Positions 12,344-26,259 are shown, counted from the stretch's first letter. The stretch: 64,000 nt of DNA from Sulfuricurvum sp. (GCA_036170115.1 JAVHOQ010000095.1:8042-72041), one strand, 5' to 3'. The notes: generated by a model from the sequence alone, not told the origin. Program-made: numbers and translations.

Positions 12344-13129
12344 ATGACAATGACAATTGACCTCCATAATCATACGGTATTATGTAACCACGCCACAGGA
12401 ACGGTAGATGAATATGTTGAAGCTGCTATTGCGGTGGGAACGAAGTATTTTGGCTTTTCGGATCATGCTCCCATACGGTTTGACCCTGAATATCGGATGA
12501 GCATTTCCCAAATGGGGGTGTATGAACGGTGGATTCGTGAAGCCCAAGAGAAGTATCGTGATCGCATAACGATTTTGTTGGGATATGAAGTCGATTTTTT
12601 ACCCAATTATATGGAGCCAAGTGTCTTAAATCGACCCTGTGATTACCGTATTGGAAGTGTCCATTTTATCGATCAGTGGGGGTTTGATAACCCTGAGTAT
12701 TTTCATCGTTATCAAGAAGTAGAGAGCGATGAGATGTACATTCGCTATTTTAAATTGATTGAGGAGATGGCAAAAAGTGGCCGTTTCGATATTGTAGGGC
12801 ATTTGGATTTGCTCAAGGTATTTAAATTTTTCCCCAAAACCGATGTACGAATCTTGGCAAAAAATGCCCTTTTAGCGATTAAAAAAGCCAATATGACCAT
12901 AGAGATTAATGTTGCAGGCTTGCGAAAACCCGTAGAAGAGATCTATCCCTCTCCCTCCTTATTGGAGGTCATTGCTGAACTTGAAATCCCCATTACTTTT
13001 GGTTCGGATGCCCATCGTCCCGATCAAGTGGGGCTGTTTACGCACGAAGCGCAGGCTCTTGCACGCAGTGTTGGATATGAGTACGGTGCCACTTATTGCA
13101 ACAGAGATCGAGCCATGGTTAAATTTTAG
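12344..13129 (+). CDS. PHP-family histidinol-phosphate phosphatase (HisJ family)
   Basis: IDLHNHT, FSDHAP, GYEVDF, IGSVH, GHLD, FGSDAH. Confidence 0.88.
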   Translation: MTMTIDLHNHTVLCNHATGTVDEYVEAAIAVGTKYFGFSDHAPIRFDPEYRMSISQMGVYERWIREAQEKYRDRITILLGYEVDFLPNYMEPSVLNRPCDYRIGSVHFIDQWGFDNPEYFHRYQEVESDEMYIRYFKLIEEMAKSGRFDIVGHLDLLKVFKFFPKTDVRILAKNALLAIKKANMTIEINVAGLRKPVEEIYPSPSLLEVIAELEIPITFGSDAHRPDQVGLFTHEAQALARSVGYEYGATYCNRDRAMVKF

Positions 13130-13133
13130 GCAC
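13115..13133 (+). promoter_or_regulatory. Putative nitrogen-regulon box upstream of glnA
   Basis: ATGGTTAAATTTTAGGCAC, 31 nt upstream of TATACT (13165-13170); matches both amt boxes. Confidence 0.65.
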
Positions 13134-13201
13134 TTTACTTTTTTAGAATTAACATTTAATTTGCTATACTGCTTGAACTTTATTTTTTAGAGGTGAGATG
13201 T

Positions 13202-14632
13202 ATGGGAAAATTTGTAAACAGTGTCGATGAGTTCTTTACCTTTTGTAAAGAAAATGATGTTCAATTTGTAGATTTTAGATTTACAGACATTAAAGGTGCA
13301 TGGCACCATGTTTCTTACCGAATGAGCGCGGTTAATGCAGGTCATTTCGAGGGTGGTTTACCTTTTGATGGTTCATCCATCGACGCATGGCAACCAATCA
13401 ATAAATCAGATATGTTGCTTATCCCTGATGCTGGTTCAGCCTTTATGGATCCTTTTACGGCTGATCCAACCGTTATTGTTTTCTGTGATGTATTTGATAT
13501 TTACAAAAAACAACCGTATGAGCGTTGCCCACGTTCCATTGCAAAAGCTGCCCTTAAACACGCGGAGTCTTTAGGGATTGCCGATGCAGCGTATTTTGGC
13601 CCTGAAAATGAATTTTTTATGTTTGATTCTGTCACTTTTGTGGATAATATCAATGAAGCGGGTTATAAAATCGATACCGAAGAGGGTGGCTGGAACTCCA
13701 ATAATCCTTATCCCGATAATTACAATTCCGGTCACCGTCCGGGGACAAAAGGGGGTTACTTCCCCGTAGCGCCAACCGATTCGGGTGTTGATATCCGTGC
13801 GGAAATGATGCAAGTGATGGAACAAGTGGGTCTTGAAGTGGTGTTGGGTCACCACGAAGTAGCGCAAGGACAACACGAAATTGGTGTGGTCTTCTCCGAC
13901 ATCATTGGTGCAGCCGATAACGTCCAAAAATACAAATACGTGGTCAAAATGGTGGCACACCTTAATGGTAAAACGGCTACATTTATGCCTAAGCCAATGT
14001 TTGGGGACAATGGGAATGGTATGCACGTTCACCAATCACTTTGGAAAGAGGGCAAAAACCTTTTCTACAAAGAGGGGAACTACGCCAATATCTCTGAAAT
14101 GGGTCTCAACTACGTAGGTGGTATCTTTAAGCACGCGCGTTCAGTGGCAGCTTTTACCAACCCAACGACCAACTCGTACAAACGATTGCTTCCGGGATTT
14201 GAAGCACCAAGCGTTTTGACCTACTCTTCTCAAAACCGTTCAGCATCATGCCGTATCCCTTATGGTGCAGGTGAAAAAGCAACACGTATTGAGATGCGTT
14301 TCCCTGATTCTACGGCGTGTCCTTATCTTGCCTTTGCCGTTATGATGATGGCAGGTCTTGATGGCATCCAAAACAAAGAGATCCCTATCGGTCCAATGGA
14401 TGAAGATTTGTACGAGCTTTCATTGGATGAAATCCGTGAAAAAGGGATCCCTCAAATGCCGCATACCCTTCGTGGTTCATTAGAGTCACTTATTCGTGAT
14501 AACGATTTCTTAAAACCTGTCTTTACCGATGAGTTCCTAGAAGCGTATCGTCATTACCGATTTGAGCGTGATGTATGGCCAGATGAAGGTCGTCCAACCG
14601 CGTACGAGTTTAAAACTACCTACTCTTGCTAA
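13202..14632 (+). CDS. glnA: Glutamine synthetase type I (ATG 13202)
   Basis: [52 protein letters not shown]. Confidence 0.98.
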
Positions 14633-14636
14633 TATC

Positions 14637-14797
14637 TGTCATTCCCGCATAGGTGGGAATTCAGTCTCTTTATAAAACTTCACTCTCTTATTTATTTCAT
14701 AGATGATACTTCTTAAATGGTTCAGAAAACTGTAGTTGTTTGCAATTTGGAAGGGTGTGCATAAGAAAGTTAGACTCCCGCCTGCGCGGGAATGACG
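14637..14797. repeat. Inverted pair of CGTC-type REPs (14637-14664 +, 14771-14797 -) flanking about 105 bp between convergent glnA and pckA
   Basis: TGTCATTCCCGCATAGGTGGGAATTCAG and TAGACTCCCGCCTGCGCGGGAATGACG. Confidence 0.85.
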
Positions 14798-14821
14798 AAG
14801 AGGTGAAAAGTGATAAAAAGA

Positions 14822-16411
14822 TTATTCAGTAGGAAGTTGTGGCCCTGCCGCGGAATAGTCAAAATCGCTTTGACCTTCGGTGTATTTTTGAAAGTTTTTG
14901 ATAAACAGTGCAGCTAAACTATCGCGTTGAATGAGATACGCTTCACGATCTGCCCACGCATTGCGGGGATTGAGGATAATAGGATTTATATCTCCCAACG
15001 TTTTGGGGATATGGAACCCAAAGGTATTGGTAATGTCAAATTCACTCTCTCGGATAGAACCATCCAAAATAGCGTTGATGCACGCACGAGTATCTTTGAT
15101 ACTCATCCGTTTTCCCACACCATAACCACCCCCTGTCCAGCCTGTATTGACCAAATAGACATTTACCCCATGCTCATCAATTTTTTCACCCAACAATTTC
15201 GCGTATACTGTAGGATGAAGGGGGAGAAAGGCTTCTCCAAAACAGGAGCTAAACGTTGCCACAGGCTCCGTGATTCCCCGCTCGGTACCCGCAACCTTAG
15301 CCGTATAGCCACTGAGGAAATAGTACATCGCTTGCTCTTTGGAGAGTTTACTCACCAGAGGCAATACCCCAAAGGCATCGGCAGAGAGGAAGATGATATT
15401 TTTAGGATGCGCCGCCATAAGGGAGGGTTGAAAGTTATCAATGTGTTCTATTGGGTACGAAACGCGGGTATTTTCAGTTTTAGAGCCATCGGCGTAGTTG
15501 ACGACACCATTCTCATCCACGACCACGTTTTCAAGGAGTGCGCCACGTCGTATTGCCCCATAAATTTCAGGCTCACTGCTAGGATCAAGGTTAATGACTT
15601 TGGCATAACATCCCCCCTCGAAATTAAAGACCCCCTCATCGTCCCATCCATGCTCATCATCACCGATCAATGCCCGTTGCGGATCGGTAGAGAGGGTGGT
15701 TTTCCCCGTACCACTTAGACCGAAGAAGAGACACGTATCGCCCTCTTTCCCGACATTCGCCGAGCAGTGCATGGAGAGTTTCCCCTCCAGTGGCAACCAG
15801 TAGTTCATCATAGAGAAGATCCCTTTTTTCATCTCTCCCCCATACCATGTGCCACCGATGATCGCCAGATTTTCTTCTACATCAAAAACGACAAAGACAT
15901 CCGAGTTTAACCCTTGCTCTTTGTACGAAGGGTTCACCGTTTTGCACGCATTTAACACCGTAAACGCGGGTTTAAAGGTTTCTAGCTCTTCTGAGCTGGG
16001 ACGGATAAACATATTGGTGACAAAATGGGCTTGCCATGCAATCTCAGAGACAAAACGGATCGAACGCTTACTTGCGGGGCTTGAACCACAATAGGCATCG
16101 GTAAGGTAAAGGTCTTTGTTCGAGAGTTGGTGTTGTGCCAGCGATAAAAGCTCCTCAAAAATGGCTTTATCCACTTTTTTGTTCACATCTCCCCATGCGA
16201 TATAACGATTAGAAGGGTCTTGATTAACGAAATATTTATCTTTGGGACTGCGACCCGTAAAAATGCCCGTATCCACAGCCGTTGCACCACTTTTGGTCAT
16301 AACACATTCGCCATTGCGAAGTTCATGCTCTATTAATTCATCAAAACTCAAATTACGAAAAATCGTCTGAGCATTTTTTATCCCAATTTCGCTAATTTCT
16401 GCCTTATTCAT
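14822..16411 (-). CDS. pckA: Phosphoenolpyruvate carboxykinase (ATP)
   Basis: [51 protein letters not shown]. Confidence 0.98.
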
Positions 16412-16583
16412 AATCGCTTACCCTTTGTATTCGCCCATCATAGGCGATAATTGTGAGCTGAATTATACGCCCCCAATGTTTAATCGTAATTAAAAGCTAT
16501 TTTAAGTACTTTGTAAGAGTAAGAGGATCATAATACTCATCAGAGTTGCTAGTGCAACTATTTTTTTTCTACAGGAGCTTTCT

Positions 16584-17069
16584 ATGAAACGTTCAGGTTT
16601 TACAATGATCGAGTTGATCTTTGTTATCGTTATTCTTGGTATTTTGGCAGCAGTCGCTATTCCAAAATTGGCAGCAACACGTGATGATGCGAAAATTTCA
16701 AAAGTGCAATCGGATGCAGCAACATTGATTGGTGATTTGGGTACCAGTTATACTTCAAAAGGGACATGGACGAATGCTAAACTTTCGGATATTACGAATG
16801 TAACGGTTACTAATTCAACAGGTGCTACTCCTCAACCGCTAAATACTCTTATTTCTGGTAAAACATTTGCTCTTACCGATGGTTCAGGGAGTAATGGTGC
16901 AGGGACTCCATGTGTTACTTTTACTCTTGGAACAGGTGGTACTGCAAGTGATGGTAACGTAACCGTTGCTGCTGGTTCTTCTACTTCTAACATTTGTGTC
17001 GCTGCTCGTGCGAAATTGACTACTATGTTTAAAACCACTCAATTCGGTGGATCAGGCGTAGTTCAATAA
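16584..17069 (+). CDS. Type IV pilin/pseudopilin-like protein (candidate major pilin)
   Basis: MKRSG|FTMIELIFVIVILGILAA class III signal (G-1, F+1, E+5); Thr/Ser/Gly-rich body with two Cys. Confidence 0.9.
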   Translation: MKRSGFTMIELIFVIVILGILAAVAIPKLAATRDDAKISKVQSDAATLIGDLGTSYTSKGTWTNAKLSDITNVTVTNSTGATPQPLNTLISGKTFALTDGSGSNGAGTPCVTFTLGTGGTASDGNVTVAAGSSTSNICVAARAKLTTMFKTTQFGGSGVVQ

Positions 17070-17171
17070 GTTTTTTCTTTCTTTTTTTCTCAAGCTTTTG
17101 GGCTTGGGAATTGGATTGATTTTTAGAGATTATCAAATAATCGTAAAACTCAGTGCAATAGGGATTCATAG

Positions 17172-17624
17172 ATGAAGCGTTCGGGTGTAAGTATGTTGGA
17201 ATTAGTGTTTGTTATCGTGATTATGGGGATTTTAGCAGCCGTTGCCCTCCCAAAACTCAGTGCTACCCGCGATGATGCCCAAATTGCCAAAGGGCGTGGT
17301 GATGTTTCCGCAATTCGTGCGGCGATTGTCAATGAGCGTCAAGGACGGCTTATGAAAGGGCAATCTGGTTATATTACTAAACTTCATAATAATACGACTA
17401 CCTTATTTGATACTAATGGAACATCGACAAGTACTTTATTACAATATGGAATTGTCACTAAAGCCAATTCCAATGGTCATTGGCAAAATGTAGCTACGTT
17501 AAGTGGTAGCAATTGGTTGTATAAATACCGTATTAAAAATATTGATAATATCTTTACTTATAATCCAAGTGATGGTACCTTTAAGTGTACCAGTGGAACG
17601 TACTGCAGTCAATTAACGGATTGA
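17172..17624 (+). CDS. Second pilin/pseudopilin-like protein
   Basis: MKRSG|VSMLELVFVIVIMGILAA; C-terminal CTSGTYC. Confidence 0.88.
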   Translation: MKRSGVSMLELVFVIVIMGILAAVALPKLSATRDDAQIAKGRGDVSAIRAAIVNERQGRLMKGQSGYITKLHNNTTTLFDTNGTSTSTLLQYGIVTKANSNGHWQNVATLSGSNWLYKYRIKNIDNIFTYNPSDGTFKCTSGTYCSQLTD

Positions 17625-17643
17625 TGTTATAATTTCTCTTTCG

Positions 17644-19596
17644 GTGCGGTATTATACCATTGCCCTTTTGGGCAATCCCCTTGATCCTCTCACTTATTCA
17701 TCGACACGGCAACTTCCTATTGGGATTAAGGTTGGTGTAACGTTATCGAATCGATCATGCGAGGGCGTTGTCCTCTCTGACGTGGAAAAACCCTCTTTTC
17801 AAACACAACCTATACTTGAAGTTCTATCGTTTAGGTATAGTGATTTTCAACGCCAAAGTGCCCATTTTATGGCAACGTATTATGGGTGTTCGATGGGGGA
17901 AGCGTTAACGCTTTTTGTGCCGTTTCCCAATGATGTTGTGAATAATGAAATCCGTCATTCCCGCGAAGGCGGGAATCCAGCTAAACTTGTTCTTGCTGAG
18001 GAGAATGGGAACGGTGATGCTAATGAACAGGAGCATTCCCACTCAGGAGAGTGGGAACGAGAAAACGGGGGGATGACCATCGATATTACCCTCTCCCCCA
18101 CCCAAAACGAGGCGTTACATTTTCTCCGAGGTCATCCCCTCGCACTTCTTTTTGGGGATACGGGTGCGGGAAAAAGTGAAATTTACATGAAACGGATGGA
18201 AGAAATTCTTTGTGTGGGGAAACGTGCGGTATTGTTGTTACCCGAAATTGCCCTCACTCCCCAAATGGAGTCCCGTTTTAAAGCCCATTTTGGAGAAGCG
18301 TTTGTGTTGTGGCACTCCAAAATGACCCCAAAGCAAAAAACCCTCACCCTTGAAAAAATTCACACGGGGTTTGCACGTATCATCGCAGGACCTCGCTCGG
18401 CACTTTTTTTACCAATTCAGGATTTGGGATTGATTATTGTCGATGAAGAACACGATGAGAGTTACAAATCTTCCTCCCGTCCCCGCTATCATGCTCGTGA
18501 TATGGCGATCTACATGGGAAAACTCCTCTCAATCCCTGTCATCTTGGGGAGTGCAACACCCAGCGTAACCAGTTATGCTAAAGTCCCTTTTTTCCGTTTA
18601 CGGGGGGGATATTATCCCACCCATCGAACGTTTCTTTTTGAACCTTCCCTCGAGACATTGAGTCCACTAATGGATGAGACAGTAGCGCGAAATTATCACG
18701 CGGGTCATCAAGGGATCGTGTTTATTCCCACCCGTGCCAATTTTAAAACCATGGTGTGCGATGGGTGTGGAACAACCCTTGAATGTCCCTTTTGCAGTGT
18801 GGGGATGTCGTTACATAAAAATGCACGTGCGTTAAAATGCCACTATTGTAACTATACGGAGATGATTCCCTCGGTATGTCCCAAATGCCACAGTGGTCAC
18901 CTAAGCTCCCTACGGTTGGGAACCGCAGAAGCGGTAGCGCATTTTGAAACCACCCTTCCTGCCCTAAAAGTTCAACAATTTGATCGAGATGTCATCACGA
19001 CCCAAAAGAAACTCATTGACGTACTCAAACGCTTTAATCATCGAGAGATTGCTCTCTTGGTCGGGACACAAATGCTCTCCAAAGGGCATGATTATCACGA
19101 TATTGCCCTTGCGGTCGTGATGGGGATTGACCATCTTTTGGGGCAAACCGATTATCGCGCGCGGGAAAAAGCGTTGTCATTATTGCTCCAAATTGCGGGG
19201 CGAAGTGGTCGAAAACACGATTCGACCGTAATGGTTCAAAGTTTTAATGAATCTTTTTTTCGTCCCTATTTGGACGATTACGAACGTTTTTTGCAGGAAG
19301 AATTACTCCATCGACACGGGCGTTATCCCCCCTATACCAAACTTGCCCGTTTGCTCTTTGCCCATACCAATGGCACCAAAGCCAAAGCCCAAATGGACAG
19401 TGCTTTAGCGCATCTAAGAACCATCGTCTCGGTGGAGATAGTGGGCTATGGGGCTTCGCCGATTGAAAAAATCGGTTCTAAATATCGGTTCCAAATTCTT
19501 TTGCGTAGCCTTAAAAGCACCGATGTGATTCGCGCCATTAAGTCCATCAAATCTCCTATCATGGAAATCGATATGGACCCCATCGAGTTTACGTAA
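17644..19596 (+). CDS. priA: Primosomal protein N' (replication-restart helicase) with a REP-derived in-frame linker
   Basis: GDTGAGKSE, LPEIALTPQ, DEEHD.SYK, GSATPS, two Cys-pair Zn clusters, VGTQMLSKGHD, QIAGRSGR. Confidence 0.95.
   Translation: MRYYTIALLGNPLDPLTYSSTRQLPIGIKVGVTLSNRSCEGVVLSDVEKPSFQTQPILEVLSFRYSDFQRQSAHFMATYYGCSMGEALTLFVPFPNDVVNNEIRHSREGGNPAKLVLAEENGNGDANEQEHSHSGEWERENGGMTIDITLSPTQNEALHFLRGHPLALLFGDTGAGKSEIYMKRMEEILCVGKRAVLLLPEIALTPQMESRFKAHFGEAFVLWHSKMTPKQKTLTLEKIHTGFARIIAGPRSALFLPIQDLGLIIVDEEHDESYKSSSRPRYHARDMAIYMGKLLSIPVILGSATPSVTSYAKVPFFRLRGGYYPTHRTFLFEPSLETLSPLMDETVARNYHAGHQGIVFIPTRANFKTMVCDGCGTTLECPFCSVGMSLHKNARALKCHYCNYTEMIPSVCPKCHSGHLSSLRLGTAEAVAHFETTLPALKVQQFDRDVITTQKKLIDVLKRFNHREIALLVGTQMLSKGHDYHDIALAVVMGIDHLLGQTDYRAREKALSLLLQIAGRSGRKHDSTVMVQSFNESFFRPYLDDYERFLQEELLHRHGRYPPYTKLARLLFAHTNGTKAKAQMDSALAHLRTIVSVEIVGYGASPIEKIGSKYRFQILLRSLKSTDVIRAIKSIKSPIMEIDMDPIEFT
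17953..18061 (+). repeat. REP elements inside the priA coding sequence
   Basis: CGTCATTCCCGCGAAGGCGGGAATCCAG (17953-17980) and GCATTCCCACTCAGGAGAGTGGGAACGAG (18033-18061), with a degenerate copy of the latter between them. Confidence 0.88.
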
Positions 19597-19626
19597 AATT
19601 AACATCGCTCACGCTACAATCCCCCC

Positions 19627-20682
19627 ATGATTACACGTTACCCTACCCAAAAAATTTACGTTGGCTCTGTGGCTATTGGTGGAGATGCCCCCATCTCGGT
19701 ACAATCGATGACCTATTCGCGTACTTCCGATGTGGCTGCTACGGTGGAACAGATCAATCGACTCCATTTTGCCGGAGCCGATATTGTCCGTGTGGCAGTT
19801 CCTGATATCGAGGATGCATACGCCCTCAAATCGATCAAAGAGCAAGTATCGCTTCCGTTGGTCGCCGACATCCATTTTAATTACAAACTGGCATTGATTG
19901 CTGCTGAAGTGGTCGATTGTATCCGTTTTAATCCGGGAAATATCGGAGAAAAATCACGCATTCGTGAGATTGTCAAAGCGTGTCAAGAGCGTCATATCCC
20001 CGTACGCATTGGGGTCAATGCGGGAAGTTTGGAAAAAGAGTTTGAACAGCGTTACGGTCAGACCGCTCAAGGGATGGTCGCTTCCGCGGAATACAACATC
20101 AAATTTTTGGAAGATTTAGGATTTACCGACATCAAAGTCTCGCTCAAAGCCAGTGATGTTCAACGTACCGTAGAGGCGTATCGACTGTTGCGTCCCAAAA
20201 ATCATTACCCTTTTCATCTGGGGGTCACCGAAGCGGGAACCATTTTTCATGCGACGGTCAAAAGTGCTATTGGGTTGGGATCATTGTTGCTTGATGGGAT
20301 TGGGGATACCATGCGCGTCTCCATCACAGGGGAACTGGAAGAGGAGATCAACGTAGGTCTCGCCATTCTCAAAGACAGTGGGGTTGCCAAAGAGGGGCTT
20401 AATATCATCTCCTGTCCCACGTGTGGACGGATTGAAGCCGATTTGGTCAGTGCCGTCGCCCTTATCGAACAGCGTACCCGTCATATCAAAAAACCACTCA
20501 ATGTCTCGGTGATGGGATGCGTGGTCAATGCCATTGGGGAAGCCAAACACGCCGATGTTGCCATCGCGTACGGCAAAGAATCAGGGCTTGTGATGGTGCA
20601 AGGAGAAGTGGTCGCCCGACTCAAAGAAGGAGAATTGGTCGATCGGTTTATCCAAGAAGTGGAAAAAATGGCGGCGCAATAA
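19627..20682 (+). CDS. ispG: HMBPP synthase
   Basis: [52 protein letters not shown]. Confidence 0.97.
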
Positions 20683-22130
20683 TGGAAGCCTCTTTGTATA
20701 ATTTGGCGTTTGAGCGGGCGATTCTTAGCTCCATTATTTTTGATCCTGCCCAATTTGATGACTTTGAATCCCGACTTAATCCTGAAGATTTTTACCTTGC
20801 CGCCCATCAAGAGGTGTTTAAGGCGATGCTTTCGTTAGCCCATCGTGATCTCCCCATCGATGAAGAGTTTCTCCAAAAAGAGCTGAGTGGGAAGAAAAAA
20901 CTTGATGAGCGGGTATTGGTTGATATTCTTACCGCCAATCCCATTGCTAATACCACCGCCTACATTGAAGAGATTAAAGACAAAGCGATTAAACGTCACC
21001 TTCTTACCCTCACCACCGAAATCAAGCGGGTGACGTTAGAGGAGAATCTCAATGGGCATGATGTGGTCGATTTGGTCGAACAAAAACTCTATGAAATTAC
21101 CCAAGATGCCCAATCGGTCGATTTTAAAGATGCACCCGAAATTGCCGATAAGACCATGGCGTATATCGAAGAGATGAAAGCGCGGGGTGATGCGATTTTG
21201 GTCGGAGTCGATACGGGGTATGCAGAACTCAACAAAATGACGACAGGATTTGGTAAAGGGGATCTGGTCATTATCGCTGCCCGTCCTGCAATGGGGAAAA
21301 CCTCTTTTGCCCTTAACATGGTGCAAAATCTCATTGATAAAGGTAAAGGGGTCGCGTTTTTTTCTCTGGAAATGCCATCAGAACAGTTAATGTTGCGATT
21401 GCTGAGTGTCCAAACCTCCATCCAATTGCAACGCCTTCGGGTGGGAGACATGAACCCCCAAGAGTACCAACAGCTTAACGATGCGGTGGATAAAATGCGC
21501 CATGCTAAGCTCTTTGTCGATGATCATGGGTCGATTAATATCCATCAGCTCCGCTCCAAATTGCGTAAACTCAAAAGCCGTCACCCTGAAATCGAACTGG
21601 CGGTGATCGATTACCTCCAAATCATGAACGGTACGGGGGGAAAAGATCGCCACCTTGAGGTGAGTGAAATTTCACGTGGGCTTAAAATGCTTGCCCGTGA
21701 ACTTGAAATCCCCATCGTCGCCCTCTCACAACTTAATCGGGGACTTGAATCGCGTTCTGATAAGCGTCCGATGCTCAGTGATATTCGCGAATCGGGATCG
21801 ATTGAGCAAGATGCCGATATTATTTTATTCGTCTACCGTAATGATGTTTATCTGTACAAAGAGGAAAAAGAGCGGGAAAAAGAGGCGATAGCAGCAGGCA
21901 AAGAGTTCATCTCCAAATACGTGGAAAAAGAGGATGAAGAGGCAGAAATCATCATTGGAAAACAGCGTAATGGTCCCACGGGTCATGTAAAACTTCTGTT
22001 CCAAAAAAAGTTCACCCGTTTTATCGATAAACCCGCGTTTGGGGGGATGCAAATTGTGTATGAAAATGTCGATATGAAATCCGCGTCGATGAATATTGAT
22101 ACCCCTACGGTCTCAATGCCGATTATTTAA
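20682..22130 (+). CDS. dnaB: Replicative DNA helicase (ATG 20682, overlapping the ispG stop)
   Basis: AARPAMGKTSF, FSLEMP, IDYLQIM, LSQLNR, DIRESGSIEQDAD, KQRNGPTG; no intein seen. Confidence 0.97.
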   Translation: MEASLYNLAFERAILSSIIFDPAQFDDFESRLNPEDFYLAAHQEVFKAMLSLAHRDLPIDEEFLQKELSGKKKLDERVLVDILTANPIANTTAYIEEIKDKAIKRHLLTLTTEIKRVTLEENLNGHDVVDLVEQKLYEITQDAQSVDFKDAPEIADKTMAYIEEMKARGDAILVGVDTGYAELNKMTTGFGKGDLVIIAARPAMGKTSFALNMVQNLIDKGKGVAFFSLEMPSEQLMLRLLSVQTSIQLQRLRVGDMNPQEYQQLNDAVDKMRHAKLFVDDHGSINIHQLRSKLRKLKSRHPEIELAVIDYLQIMNGTGGKDRHLEVSEISRGLKMLARELEIPIVALSQLNRGLESRSDKRPMLSDIRESGSIEQDADIILFVYRNDVYLYKEEKEREKEAIAAGKEFISKYVEKEDEEAEIIIGKQRNGPTGHVKLLFQKKFTRFIDKPAFGGMQIVYENVDMKSASMNIDTPTVSMPII

Positions 22131-22151
22131 GAGAAGTGATTTAAGGGATTT

Positions 22152-22216
22152 TGTCACCCCGAAGGTGATTCGGGGTCTAGGGAGAGAGAAGATACTGAAT
22201 CGTATTCAGTATGACA
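22152..22216. repeat. Inverted pair of TGTC/CGTC-type palindromic repeats between convergent dnaB and glnK
   Basis: TGTCA-CCCCGAA-ggtga-TTCGGGG-TCTA and AGA-TACTGAAT-cgt-ATTCAGTA-TGACA. Confidence 0.8.
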
Positions 22217-22227
22217 AAGCGAGGCGA

Positions 22228-22569
<342 letters not shown>

Positions 22570-22579
22570 CTATTCCTTC

Positions 22580-23902
22580 TTATAAATTAAATCCACGTTC
22601 ACCGTGTACTGATTCGTCAAGACCCATGCTCTCTTCTTCTTCATTCACACGTGATCCGCCCGTTAAAGCCATAGCGATATAATACACTACAACCGTACCA
22701 ATCAAGGTAAATGCACCAACAATTGCAACTGATTGGAATTGAACAACGACTTGTCCCATACGATCGCCTGCATCTTTAAGAGGACCTGCCCAAAGAAGTG
22801 CTTTATCACTCACCGCGAAGATACCCGTTGCAATCGCACCCCAAAGACCTGCAAGGAAGTGAACCCCAAACGCATCCAAAGAGTCATCGTAACCCAATTT
22901 TTTCTTCATTACCATTACACCAAAGAACGCGATCATCGCACCCATGATACCGATGATAAAGGCACCCTCAACCAAAACAAACCCAGCAGCAGGGGTAATA
23001 GCAACCAATCCTGCAATCGCACCGGAAGCAGCACCCAACAAGGTCGCTTTTTTGAAGACCATATACTCTAAGGCAATCCACGTAATCGTCGCAACCGCTG
23101 CAGCAATCGTAGTCGATAACATCGCAACACCCGCAATTGCATTAGCACCAAACGCGGAACCCGCATTAAAGCCATACCAACCAAACCAAAGCATACCTGC
23201 ACCTACGGCAGTCAACACAACACTTGCAGGTTTCATCGCTGTTTTTGGGTAACCCGCACGTTTACCGACCAATAGCGCAAGGATAAGACCCGCCAAACCG
23301 CCGTTCATATGAACAACTGTACCACCCGCAAAATCAAGCGCACCGAGGTTAAAGAGGTATCCACCACCCCATACCATATGGGCAATTGGAGCATAAACAA
23401 CGACCGTCCAAAGGGCAACGAAAACCATCCATGTCGAAAATTTCAAACGCTCAATCACTGAACCAGACGCGATGGCTACGGTAATAGCGGCAAACGTCCC
23501 TTGGAACACAACAAAGACGTATTTAGGATAGAGTTGTCCCAATTCAACACTGGTGAAATCATCCCATTTGATACCATTAAGCATTACATTGCCAAAACCA
23601 CCAATAATTTGGTTCATTGACCCATCCGCGGTTCCAAACGCAATGGAAAACCCTACGATAATCCAAACGATAAATCCAACCGCAAATGCACCAAAGACCA
23701 TCGCATACGTATTAAGGATATTTTTAGCACGGGTCATCCCGCCATAAAACAGTGCCAAACCAATCGGTGTCATCAACATAACAAGGGCTGTTGAGATCAA
23801 CATCCACGCCGTATCTCCTGAGTTAAGCACGGGTGCTGCAGCTGCGGCTGTACCATCTGCCAATGCCAACAGTGGCAAAAGCAATAACATGAATTTCTTC
23901 AT
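22580..23902 (-). CDS. amtB: Ammonium transporter AmtB (ATG 23902 after AAGGAG)
   Basis: FQGTFA, DFAGGTVVH, LWFGWYGFNAGS, DDSLDAFGVH (both conserved His). Confidence 0.95.
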   Translation of the reverse strand: MKKFMLLLLPLLALADGTAAAAAPVLNSGDTAWMLISTALVMLMTPIGLALFYGGMTRAKNILNTYAMVFGAFAVGFIVWIIVGFSIAFGTADGSMNQIIGGFGNVMLNGIKWDDFTSVELGQLYPKYVFVVFQGTFAAITVAIASGSVIERLKFSTWMVFVALWTVVVYAPIAHMVWGGGYLFNLGALDFAGGTVVHMNGGLAGLILALLVGKRAGYPKTAMKPASVVLTAVGAGMLWFGWYGFNAGSAFGANAIAGVAMLSTTIAAAVATITWIALEYMVFKKATLLGAASGAIAGLVAITPAAGFVLVEGAFIIGIMGAMIAFFGVMVMKKKLGYDDSLDAFGVHFLAGLWGAIATGIFAVSDKALLWAGPLKDAGDRMGQVVVQFQSVAIVGAFTLIGTVVVYYIAMALTGGSRVNEEEESMGLDESVHGERGFNL

Positions 23903-23975
23903 CGTCGTTTCTCCTTTTTTTTGTCTAACTTCAAACACAATTCTACAAAAATAATAAAGATTAATAATCATATCT

Positions 23976-23994
23976 ATGCCTAAATTTTAATCAC
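23976..23994 (-). promoter_or_regulatory. Putative nitrogen-regulon box upstream of amtB-glnK
   Basis: GTGATTAAAATTTAGGCAT (minus strand), 30 nt upstream of TAGAAT (23940-23945). Confidence 0.7.
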
Positions 23995-24067
23995 AATGGT
24001 GCTTCATTGATTATAGTCATTTATGACCGTACTATGCGTTAAGGTGTCCCAGTCAATTGTGTGTTAT

Positions 24068-24985
24068 TTACGAAAACCACCCAAAGAGGGTGGGGATCAT
24101 GCACGCTACCGCAAAAAAAAGTACCGAAGTGACCAGTACCCCCACCGTGACATGACGCACCGAGCATCCATACAAAGAAGCAAGATTGACATTTGCCACC
24201 GCTAAGGGGACAAGAAATGCCAAAAAGACCATCTCTTTGATCACCAAAGGGAGGGTCATGGGGTATAACACCCCAAAAGCGATGAGGGGTACAAGTATAA
24301 ATTTGGCAAACGTTATCCACAGAGTCAAACGAAGCTTGAGATGGGTAATTTTGATTCCATACAGATAAATCCCCAACAACACCAGCTGAATGGTCATCGA
24401 GGCATACGCCCCCATCATGAGGGTCTTATCGACCGTAGCACTGGGGTGATAGCCGTTTAGATTCAACGCAATTGCCACAGAAGCTGCCCATAAAACAGGG
24501 AGTTTAAGAATATTCATCAGCGAATCGCGAACGCTAAATTCCCCTCGGGAATAGTAAAAAACCCCAAAGGTATAGACCACGAAGACATTGACCAAATTGA
24601 TCAACGTCAAATACGCCACACTCCCCTCACCAAACAACGTAATCCCCAAAGGGATACCCAAATTTCCCGTATTCCCAATGAGTGCGGCAACCGTAGCAAT
24701 CGAACGCTCTTTTATGTCATCGGCAAACAATCCTCGGGCAAGGGGGATCATGATAAGTAATGCGATAAGGGTAATGACACAATACAGCGCGGGGGCAAGG
24801 AGGAGTTGGGTATCGATGGGGCGTTTTAAGAGTCCCCAAAAGGTAAGAAAAATTTGGAGAAAATAGACACTCAATAGCACTAAGGTTTTGTCGTCTATTT
24901 TTTCTTTGAACGCCCACTTGGCACCAAATCCCACCCCAATAAAGAGGTAAATCCCCGCAAGGGAGAGAAAGGTTTCAAGGTTCAT
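24068..24985 (-). CDS. AEC (auxin efflux carrier) family transporter
   Basis: About 10 hydrophobic segments, GNTGNLGIPL motif, KFILVP. Confidence 0.85.
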   Translation of the reverse strand: MNLETFLSLAGIYLFIGVGFGAKWAFKEKIDDKTLVLLSVYFLQIFLTFWGLLKRPIDTQLLLAPALYCVITLIALLIMIPLARGLFADDIKERSIATVAALIGNTGNLGIPLGITLFGEGSVAYLTLINLVNVFVVYTFGVFYYSRGEFSVRDSLMNILKLPVLWAASVAIALNLNGYHPSATVDKTLMMGAYASMTIQLVLLGIYLYGIKITHLKLRLTLWITFAKFILVPLIAFGVLYPMTLPLVIKEMVFLAFLVPLAVANVNLASLYGCSVRHVTVGVLVTSVLFFAVACMIPTLFGWFS

Positions 24986-24991
24986 GTGAGG

Positions 24992-26170
24992 TTAAATGGC
25001 ACGTTTGAATTCTGGGTAGGCTTCCAATCCGCATTCGCTCACATCCAGCCCTTGCATCTGATCTTCATCACTGGCACGGAAAGGGAAAACTTTATTGATC
25101 AGATAAATAATGACATAGGAGATCGTAAATACAAAGACCGCGATTTCCGCTACCCCTTTGAGCTGATTCATAAAAGTGACATTATGTGCAGGATCACTCG
25201 CAAAAATACCTACTGCTAACGTCCCCCAAATACCATTAATAAGATGCACTGACAATGCCCCAACCGGATCATCAATACGCACTTTATCAAACAAAGGAAC
25301 CGCAAAAACGACCAATGCCCCGCCAATAAGACCGACCATAATGGAATCGTACAGTGTAAACAAATGTGCCCCTGCGGTAATGGCGACCAATCCCCCTAAT
25401 GCCCCATTGAGAATCATCGTAATATCAAACAGTTTATACCGAATATAGATGATAATCCCTGCGATAATTGCCCCTGATAACCCTGCGACGTTGGTATTAA
25501 AGATGGTCAAGGCAACGCTATCAGCAGCCTCTTTGGTCGCGATGCTTCCGACCGATCCGCCATTGAATCCAAACCATCCAATCCACAATAACATGGCACC
25601 CAGTACTACCAATGGGATATTTGAGGCGGGAATAACCCGAATGTGATTCCCTGCATAACGCCCTTTTCGGGATCCAATAATCAAAATAGCGGCCAGCAAG
25701 GCCCATCCTCCTGTGGAGTGGATCACCGTCGAGCCTGCTAAATCGACCATATTAATATCCAATAGGGTATCTTTGAGCCAATCACTTCCCCACGTAATAT
25801 TGACCGCTGTAGGATAGATAAAGCTCCCCATGACAATGGTAAAAAGGCTCAAGGGGAGAAGACGCGCCCGTTCACCAACCCCTCCACTCATAATGTTGAT
25901 CGCTTTGCCCACAAATGCCATTTGGAACATAAAAAATGCCCATTTACTCATGGTCTCATTGTGCAACTCCCCAAACGCAAGGGTATACCCAATAAGAATG
26001 AATGCCATAGAGGCGACCGCATAAATCATTACATTGACCGTTAAAACACTCGAAACATTCTTGGTGCGTACCAAGCCCGCTTCCAACATAGCAAACCCTG
26101 GTACCATAAGAATAATTAACGTAATGGCAAAGAGGGTAAACAGGGTATTAATCACATAAGCCGTATCCAT
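24992..26170 (-). CDS. amt: Second ammonium transporter (Amt1-type)
   Basis: PGFAMLEAGLVRTKN, DLAGSTVIH, LWIGWFGFNGGS, DDPVGALSVH. Confidence 0.93.
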   Translation of the reverse strand: MDTAYVINTLFTLFAITLIILMVPGFAMLEAGLVRTKNVSSVLTVNVMIYAVASMAFILIGYTLAFGELHNETMSKWAFFMFQMAFVGKAINIMSGGVGERARLLPLSLFTIVMGSFIYPTAVNITWGSDWLKDTLLDINMVDLAGSTVIHSTGGWALLAAILIIGSRKGRYAGNHIRVIPASNIPLVVLGAMLLWIGWFGFNGGSVGSIATKEAADSVALTIFNTNVAGLSGAIIAGIIIYIRYKLFDITMILNGALGGLVAITAGAHLFTLYDSIMVGLIGGALVVFAVPLFDKVRIDDPVGALSVHLINGIWGTLAVGIFASDPAHNVTFMNQLKGVAEIAVFVFTISYVIIYLINKVFPFRASDEDQMQGLDVSECGLEAYPEFKRAI

Positions 26171-26240
26171 AACACTACACCTTTGATGGGGGATAAAGGT
26201 GTCTATTATAATAGCAATTTTGTGAAATGAAGCGGAAAGC

Positions 26241-26259
26241 GTGATTAAATTTTAATCAC
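26241..26259 (-). promoter_or_regulatory. Putative nitrogen-regulon box upstream of amt2 (perfect palindrome)
   Basis: GTGATTAAA-W-TTTAATCAC, 30 nt upstream of TATAAT (26205-26210, minus strand). Confidence 0.75.

Follow-up and report, generated by a model that had tools for sequence, protein, structure and literature searches.

The 64,000-nucleotide (nt) stretch of Sulfuricurvum sp. DNA analysed here (GCA_036170115.1, JAVHOQ010000095.1:8042-72041), referred to throughout as the window, carries three copies of a 19-bp dyad, one each upstream of the glutamine synthetase gene glnA, of amtB-glnK, and of a second ammonium transporter gene, amt2. An initial annotation, made from the sequence alone, described these boxes as the operator of a nitrogen-assimilation regulon read by a sigma-70-dependent activator. 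The boxes are considered here together with a 270-amino-acid (aa) protein, encoded outside the window, which is the candidate for binding them. The features of the window are as follows, with scores from the position weight matrix (PWM) described below; genomes (G), contigs of this genome (C), loci (L), genera (g) and families (f) are given by our own labels where they have to be told apart.

12344-13129, plus strand: hisJ-like histidinol-phosphatase gene, with its TAG stop inside the glnA box
13115-13133, plus strand: box 1 (glnA), ATGGTTAAATTTTAGGCAC; 17-bp core at 13116-13132; PWM score 19.2
13142-13170, plus strand: sigma-70-type promoter of glnA; -35-like TTTAGA at 13142-13147, 17-nt spacer with TGn, -10 TATACT at 13165-13170
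13202-14632, plus strand: glnA, type I glutamine synthetase (TIGR00653, E 1e-184)
22228-23902, minus strand: amtB-glnK, one operon; amtB at 22580-23902 (TIGR00836), glnK/PII at 22228-22566 (PRK10858/PRK10665)
23940-23945, minus strand: amtB-glnK promoter, -10 hexamer TAGAAT, 30 nt past box 2, read directly
23976-23994, minus strand: box 2 (amtB-glnK), GTGATTAAAATTTAGGCAT; PWM score 22.3
24068-24985, minus strand: AEC-like permease gene, 305 aa (weak TIGR00946), starting 6 nt past amt2
24992-26170, minus strand: amt2, second amt gene (TIGR03644/TIGR00836)
26205-26210, minus strand: amt2 promoter, -10 hexamer TATAAT, 30 nt past box 3, read directly
26241-26259, minus strand: box 3 (amt2), GTGATTAAAATTTAATCAC; PWM score 23.5

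The three 19-mers are indeed present at these positions, ahead of genes that NCBIfam identifies as glnA, amtB-glnK, and a second amt, and reading of the sequence confirms that the amt2 box is a perfect palindrome around its central base; it is also the best-scoring site of the genome. The box 2 site is found as well in the closest relative, G002. Within the 64 kb, the consensus given in the initial annotation, with up to three mismatches, matches only at the three box places, a count that is equalled by 1 of 100 shuffled sequences. The distances from box to -10 hexamer are 31, 30, and 30 nt (TATACT, TAGAAT, and TATAAT), as had been claimed, and the glnA promoter has 9 of 12 matches in a consensus scan, with a TG ahead of the -10. 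No GG-N10-GC sigma-54 element is found by direct reading between any of the three boxes and the start codon, which agrees with the initial annotation, where no -24/-12 element had been seen; the start codon of amtB was set at the ATG behind AAGGAG. The TAG stop codon of the hisJ-like gene lies within box 1, which means that the operator overlaps coding sequence here. There is a gap of only 6 nt between amt2 and the AEC-like permease gene, and the two are therefore probably co-transcribed, which would place the permease in a box-controlled transcript.

The PWM was built from the box sites of related (Sulfurimonadaceae) glnA loci. It refines the proposed 19-bp unit to the 17-mer TGATTAA-N3-TTAATCA with invariant TG...CA ends, positions 1 and 19 of the longer unit holding next to no information (0.13 bits). 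The frequencies are 0.99 for T-8, 0.98 for G-7, 0.98 for C+7, 0.95 for A-3, and 0.88 for T-4, and positions -2 to +2 are A or T only. A box-like dyad is present 60-100 nt upstream of the glnA ATG at all 76 Sulfurimonadaceae loci with enough upstream DNA, about 30 nt ahead of a conserved (g)aTATACT, and the spacer in between has freely diverged; in relatives the hexamer kept 30-31 nt past the box is TATACT or TATAAT.

The absence of a regulator gene from the window had been noted, and the likely gene does lie elsewhere, on contig C8:

C8:4565-5374: candidate regulator gene, 270 aa, between slyD-like and fabD-like genes

Only three proteins with the helix-turn-helix (HTH) domain HTH_8 are encoded in the genome, a NifA-like protein, a 299-aa receiver-HTH protein similar to HP1021/CemR, and this 270-aa protein, which matches PF02954 (HTH_8) with 28.3 bits against a cut-off of 22. 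There are weak PspF-like matches at its Walker A motif and LPPLxER lid, while the Response_reg and Sigma54_activat Pfam profiles give no match. The protein begins about 20 residues before Walker A, and its AlphaFold model (pLDDT 86) is a compact AAA+ domain followed by the HTH, with no extra domain. The segment from Walker A to sensor I has about 54 residues, compared with about 100 in PspF. Three elements are conserved or invariant in 22 orthologues, the glycines of Walker A, the LPPLxER motif, and the helix LG(L/I)NRNTLRKK; Walker A is kept in 21 and N250, R251, T253, L254, R255, K256, and K257 in all, and GAFTGA occurs in none of the 22. The best structural match of the model is Brucella NtrX (E 8e-8), followed by PspF, FlrC, NtrC4, NtrC1, VpsR, and FleQ. 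The databases name the protein only as 'sigma 54-interacting transcriptional regulator', 'NtrC family response regulator' or 'Fis'.

The regulator is present as a single copy in 49 of 201 Campylobacterota genomes, from eleven families, and in none of the f8 and f9 genomes examined. The glnA gene was located in 80 genomes, and upstream regions were taken from the 79 in which its start is inside the contig. The glnA box is found in 38 of 39 genomes with the regulator and in 0 of 40 without it (Fisher p = 8e-22), or, counted by genus, in 27/27 and 0/12; the best score among the 40 regulator-less genomes is 9.9, at an unrelated position. Apart from six genomes of the same family, the 39 regulator-bearing genomes, from all eleven families, are independent of the training of the PWM. 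In the 38 with a box the score is at least 11 (usually 17-27), and the box is at the expected promoter position in 36, with a distance of 139 nt before the ATG in two f12 genomes. The conservation in orthologous promoters that the initial annotation had set as a check is thus present both within Sulfurimonadaceae and across families.

Family f12 includes both states. Four of its genera have the regulator and the box, and one, g18, has lost both but keeps amt-PII, with decayed relics at glnA and amt. Regulator-less genomes retain decayed half-boxes at the old positions upstream of amt, glnA or glnK (L237 at 5665 and 5759; L131, upstream of glnA in G048; L239 at 3018), in which one half-site is intact and the terminal CA of the other is gone. 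PII is found in all 40 genomes carrying the regulator, and was considered as the best correlate of the box, but was rejected as such since it is kept in the f12 genus that lost the box and the regulator. No other HTH_8 protein matches the distribution of the box among 22 complete or near-complete genomes.

There is also linkage between the regulator gene and the genes preceded by the box. The regulator gene adjoins amtB-glnK in at least six families, and it lies 1.4-3.1 kb from a PII gene in about 14 genomes of six families. In f14, f13, and f7 it diverges from amtB-glnK or from a porin gene, and the box is in the intergenic region between the two; in f10 the genes glnK-amtB-X (X being a membrane protein described below) have a box ahead of them, and the regulator gene follows downstream on the same strand; and in f5, f12, and f13 it is just upstream of amt genes. 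A position beside glnA was looked for as well and rejected, the neighbours in 80 loci being only leuA, pst/phoU, and a Pho-type two-component system.

The box is held at a fixed distance from the -10 hexamer. Of 38 glnA promoters from eleven families, 31 have 30-31 nt between the 19-mer and the -10, and 3 have 20-21 nt. Measured from the end of the 17-mer, the spacing is 31-32 nt at glnA, amtB, amt2, nrtA, the CZB-domain gene, and nifA, and 21-22 nt at X, rpoN, and narK of genome G012. The two classes are one helical turn (10 bp) apart and place the centre of the dyad at about -52 or about -42, the position near -52 claimed for the window being that of the commoner class. Spacing classes one turn apart indicate a face-of-helix requirement of the kind that activators typically show and repressors can do without, and they argue for sigma-70 activation. 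That this geometry is conserved at nitrogen genes in eleven families supports the earlier suggestion that the box is the site of a sigma-70-dependent nitrogen activator.

A second glnA box is present exactly 64 bp farther upstream in three relatives (L027 2851/2915, L028 2852/2916, and L075 2851/2915), a distance of about six helical turns, and in one f10 genome there are two boxes 22 bp apart upstream of glnK (L209 5211/5233). These pairs suggest cooperative or higher-order binding.

Fis-type sites have a 15-bp core bounded by G/C at ±7, which are read by the Arg that starts the recognition helix, with T/A preferred at ±8, a Y-R step at ±(3-4), and an A/T-rich centre with a compressed minor groove (PMC4784862). 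The consensus of Fis sites is GNTYAAAWTTTRANC, in which G±7 is read by Arg85 (PMC6907758). The box consensus, GATTAAAWTTTAATC, agrees with GNTYAAAWTTTRANC at each specified position, with its G-7/C+7 borders, T/A at ±8, Y-R step at ±(3-4), and A/T centre. As a pattern of bases, therefore, the box carries all of the features of a site for a Fis/NtrC-type HTH dimer. The initial annotation had set the box apart from that of NtrC, and the sequence does differ; the geometry does not, since it is NtrC/Fis-type (17 bp, 7-3-7, TG...CA ends), and the probable binder is NtrC-derived. The distinction from the TnrA/GlnR box, TGTNA-N7-TNACA, stands without change, as the core has A or C at position 3, where only 7% of sites have T, and T at position 5.

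The reading favoured here, with a probability of about three in four, is that the three dyads are nitrogen-regulon operators of free-living Campylobacterota, bound by the NtrC-derived 270-aa protein, which activates sigma-70 promoters. A dimer of this small regulator would bind TGATTAA-N3-TTAATCA by its Fis-type HTH, with the recognition-helix Arg reading the invariant G/C at ±7 and the A/T centre supplying a narrow minor groove, both by analogy with Fis. Positioned at about -52, or one turn closer at about -42, the regulator would activate sigma-70 RNA polymerase at promoters with a good -10 and a poor -35, and would act without phosphorylation and without sigma-54. Behind this stand the observations that the box is conserved, is fixed in its geometry, and is of Fis type, and that the regulator both co-occurs with and is encoded near the box and amtB-glnK, together with the folds predicted for the proteins; direct binding, activation rather than repression, and the nitrogen signal are what we infer.

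The genome scanned, a metagenome-assembled one of 1.86 Mb and about 92% completeness, is placed in Sulfurimonas (Campylobacterota) by the relatives of its GlnA. The pattern TGNNTRWWWWWYANNCA has 14 occurrences, 10 of them intergenic, compared with 2 in a reversed-sequence control. PWM scores of at least 18 are reached by seven sites, against 0-3 (mean 0.85) in 20 block-shuffled genomes, and all seven are outside open reading frames (ORFs) or at the extreme end of one. Beyond the window, these sites precede genes for an NrtA-like protein, for X, for a CZB-domain protein, and for an outer-membrane channel. There are weaker boxes upstream of a NifA-like gene (GAF/sigma-54), rpoN, and siroheme genes. 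The main features outside the window are:

C64:10212-13147: NrtA-like binding protein gene heading an ABC operon (nrtABC-like), with a strong box upstream
C15:9163-10029: gene for X, a 288-aa membrane protein, with one of the strongest boxes, at 21-nt spacing
C45:14360-15439 and C45:15926-16048: NifA-like gene (GAF and sigma-54 AAA+), with a weak box 79 nt upstream
C81:5723-5739: box-like site TGCCTACTTTTTAACCA, 21 nt ahead of TATACT, upstream of rpoN

The proposed regulon in this genome would consist of glnA, amtB-glnK, amt2, the nrtABC-like operon, the outer-membrane channel, X, and the CZB-domain protein, and, with a weaker site, the nifA-like gene. In the PWM scan, which the initial annotation had suggested as a check, the top matches of the genome are nitrogen genes. 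The list of further members given in that annotation holds in part: sites are present at the nrtABC-like operon and the nifA-like gene here and at nirA/narK in another family, whereas no box site was found in the genome scan at gltBD or the urea genes. A weaker, asymmetric box (about WTGCCTATTTTTTATACAW) is found upstream of nifA-like genes in 26 Sulfurimonadaceae genomes, mostly at the usual distance from the -10. The NifA-like ORF of this genome has 331 aa before its stop, against 539 aa in the orthologue of G002, which is 98% identical, and the HTH is in another frame; the break is a frameshift or an assembly error. The rpoN gene is probably in the regulon, and with sites at both rpoN and nifA the sigma-54 branch would fall under the same regulator.

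In G012, a complete genome of higher GC from another family, the pattern has 2 matches, and the control 0. Both matches are in one nitrogen island with the order nasA-nirA, box, narK, box, amtB-glnK, so that one is between the divergent nirA and narK and the other is ahead of amtB-glnK. A gene for a fused PP2C phosphatase and Ser/Thr kinase is located between narK and amtB in this island (L084, 9103-10770). The two-component system beside the island was rejected as a candidate regulator, being an OmpR-type pair that adjoins exbBD and has nothing to connect it with the box.

Two proteins may be involved in signal input, neither of which has a significant match in Pfam or NCBIfam. In X a soluble N-terminal portion is combined with about five transmembrane helices. 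Families f10 and f12 have its homologues encoded between amtB and the regulator gene, and X may serve the nitrogen regulon as a sensor or transporter component. The second protein, Y, is encoded as follows:

C64:5336-6022: gene for Y, 228 aa, translationally coupled to rpoD via an overlapping TAATG

Homologues of Y (about 230 aa) are encoded directly 3' of the regulator gene in seven families, although not in this genome. In the model of Y (pLDDT 87.6) a PAS domain leads directly into a CA-like domain of histidine-kinase type, with the C-terminal domain of NtrB (1r62) as the best single-domain match (TM 0.72, normalised to the target). The model lacks DHp helices, Y has no DHp/His domain, and its N and G boxes are not conserved. 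With that domain missing and the ATP-binding boxes degenerate, phosphotransfer would be impossible, and the regulator-Y pair looks like NtrB/NtrC without the phosphotransfer parts and recalls NifL-NifA. Y has the properties of a partner in a NifL-NifA-like switch, namely a PAS and a GHKL-type domain without phosphotransfer, adjoining the regulator in 7 families. The nitrogen signal may reach the regulator via PII and/or this PAS and NtrB-like pseudokinase protein.

Several points weigh against the reading of the 270-aa protein as the activator that binds the box. In this genome the regulator gene adjoins none of its targets, and the PWM scan of the genome finds no box near it that would indicate autoregulation, so there is no local evidence here. 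The phyletic split largely tracks free-living versus host-associated lineages, which means that many genes share the same distribution, and only about three independent loss events are visible in the signal. G185 has the regulator but no good glnA box. The argument for activation is one of promoter geometry, and since Campylobacterota promoters are generally without a -35, the argument from a poor -35 is weakened. Finally, the PWM scores up to 19.2 on the reversed control, the motif being A/T-rich and giving background matches, which makes weaker members such as rpoN and cobA uncertain.

The confounding with lifestyle, and the regulator gene being unlinked to its targets in this genome, would fit a genuine nitrogen operator that has another, non-Fis-type binder, with the 270-aa protein merely sharing its ecological distribution. 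This is unlikely, given that the box follows the rules of Fis-type recognition position by position, that in several families the regulator adjoins amtB-glnK with the box in the shared intergenic region, that it tracks the box better than PII does, and that there is no other HTH_8 protein with a fitting distribution. The protein could also bind the box but mainly repress or anti-activate under nitrogen excess, or be an architectural, Fis-like bender of DNA. Brucella NtrX, its best structural match, is known mainly as a repressor of its own promoter, some divergent promoters have one common box, and the cobA candidate site is just 12 nt from a -10. The sites are upstream of the -35 position, however, rather than over the -10 or the start, and the fixed spacing (30-31 nt, and in a smaller class exactly one turn less) is phasing of the kind typical of activators, so a mainly repressive or architectural role is improbable.

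Binders from other families are very improbable. A TnrA/GlnR-like MerR protein would fit the 17-bp length and the TG/CA ends, as in the TnrA box, and TnrA activates from about -50, but the sole MerR protein of this genome, which is 92% complete, is the single PF13411 match directly after cbpA, the context of HspR. The half-sites TTGAT/ATCAA are as for FNR, and a second Crp/Fnr protein with an ExxSR helix, encoded on C54, was considered as an NtcA-like binder. The Crp/Fnr core is TGA-N6-TCA in a 14-16-bp site; the box, TGA-N11-TCA, has its half-sites 5 bp too far apart, and the distribution is mismatched, with homologues in 22/40 box-less genomes and none in the box-bearing G023. An Rrf2 regulator with three Cys (C64:9659-10084) is encoded directly upstream of the nrtABC-like operon, its gene ending 37 nt ahead of the nrtA box, but close orthologues are limited to two genomes, and no Rrf2 match is present in eight of the genomes with the box; this protein probably regulates locally. 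That the boxes are a chance product of A/T-rich intergenic DNA is barely credible: some high PWM scores do occur in reversed or shuffled sequence, yet the position and the invariant TG/CA are kept over eleven families while the flanks have diverged, and the sites are restricted to nitrogen genes, with 2 matches against 0 even in the higher-GC G012. The other HTH_8 proteins were rejected as well. The 299-aa receiver-HTH protein is also present in box-less genomes, and its gene follows ispDF, which we take to be the HP1021/CemR gene context; the NifA-like protein is in only 26/61 genomes of the family and is itself a target.

Among the closest known systems is NtrB/NtrC of the Proteobacteria (sites TGCACC-N5-GGTGCA), which has glnA, amtB-glnK, and nifA as common targets and the same 17-bp 7-3-7 dyad with TG...CA ends, although the inner bases differ. 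The regulator here likewise has the AAA+ fold of a bacterial enhancer-binding protein (bEBP) and a C-terminal Fis-type HTH, and Y has a PAS and an NtrB-like C-terminal domain but not the DHp/His domain. NtrC differs in its receiver domain and GAFTGA loop, neither of which is present in the regulator, and in acting from remote enhancers at sigma-54 promoters rather than from single promoter-proximal sites (-52/-42). NtrX of Brucella abortus (PDB 5m7p/5m7n/5m7o) is, as here, an AAA+ protein without GAFTGA and with a Fis-type HTH, sigma-54-independent and linked to nitrogen, but it keeps a phosphorylatable receiver with a cognate kinase, NtrY; the regulator here is without an N-terminal sensor or receiver and has another box. 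TyrR, HupR, and Rhodobacter capsulatus NtrC are further bEBP relatives that lack GAFTGA and act with sigma-70, of which TyrR differs in having ACT/PAS sensor domains, with none in the regulator.

The recognition helix of Escherichia coli Fis, NRGTLRKK, is nearly identical to the NRNTLRKK found here, and Fis can activate sigma-70 promoters from near -41 and -71. Fis, however, is an abundant 98-aa nucleoid protein of loose specificity and without AAA+, in contrast to the few nitrogen-specific sites and the bEBP-derived domain here. In NifL-NifA of Azotobacter and Klebsiella a receiver-less bEBP is controlled stoichiometrically by a PAS and GHKL pseudo-kinase with input from PII, and the regulator-Y gene pair is of similar composition; NifA differs by its GAF domain, its GAFTGA, and its action at sigma-54 promoters, and Y here is coupled to rpoD and not to the regulator gene. 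TnrA/GlnR of Bacillus has a 17-bp dyad with TG/CA ends upstream of glnA, amt, and nitrate genes, as here, activates from about -50, and has one box common to divergent nitrate genes, which compares with nirA/narK in G012. It differs in belonging to the MerR family and in half-site positions 3 and 5.

No description was found in the literature of the operator, the regulator or the module, nor of nitrogen sensing in these Campylobacterota. An NtrC/Fis-type operator with an NtrBC-derived regulator at sigma-70 promoters, without receiver, GAFTGA or kinase, is most likely new. A further, tentative suggestion is that free-living Campylobacterota run the whole nitrogen regulon by a fossilised NtrB/NtrC pair that has been stripped of phosphotransfer. 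As one joint proposal, the NtrC remnant, an AAA+ protein without GAFTGA that has a Fis-type HTH, would act on sigma-70 promoters as an activator from one dyad, at -52 or -42; Y would gate the regulator stoichiometrically with PII docking on its NtrB-like CA domain; the translational coupling of Y and rpoD might let Y tie the switch directly to sigma-70; and X, whose gene has a box here and is part of the amtB-regulator operon elsewhere, would be another component of the sensor.

Sulfurimonas, Sulfurovum, and Arcobacter-like Campylobacterota dominate sulfidic, vent, and redoxcline habitats, where they drive carbon, sulfur, and nitrogen turnover. The analysis offers a testable model of their nitrogen control, which names an operator and a first regulon, describes the geometry of the promoters, and puts forward candidates for the regulator and for a signalling partner. 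The regulon spans ammonium uptake, glutamine synthetase, nitrate/nitrite assimilation, and a porin, and the inclusion of the nifA-like gene would bring nitrogen fixation under the same control. The box permits the prediction of nitrogen-regulated genes in metagenome-assembled genomes, including uncharacterised ones such as X. If the model is true, a sigma-54, phosphorylation-driven enhancer system would be reducible to a simple sigma-70 activator that keeps its DNA-reading head and its targets.

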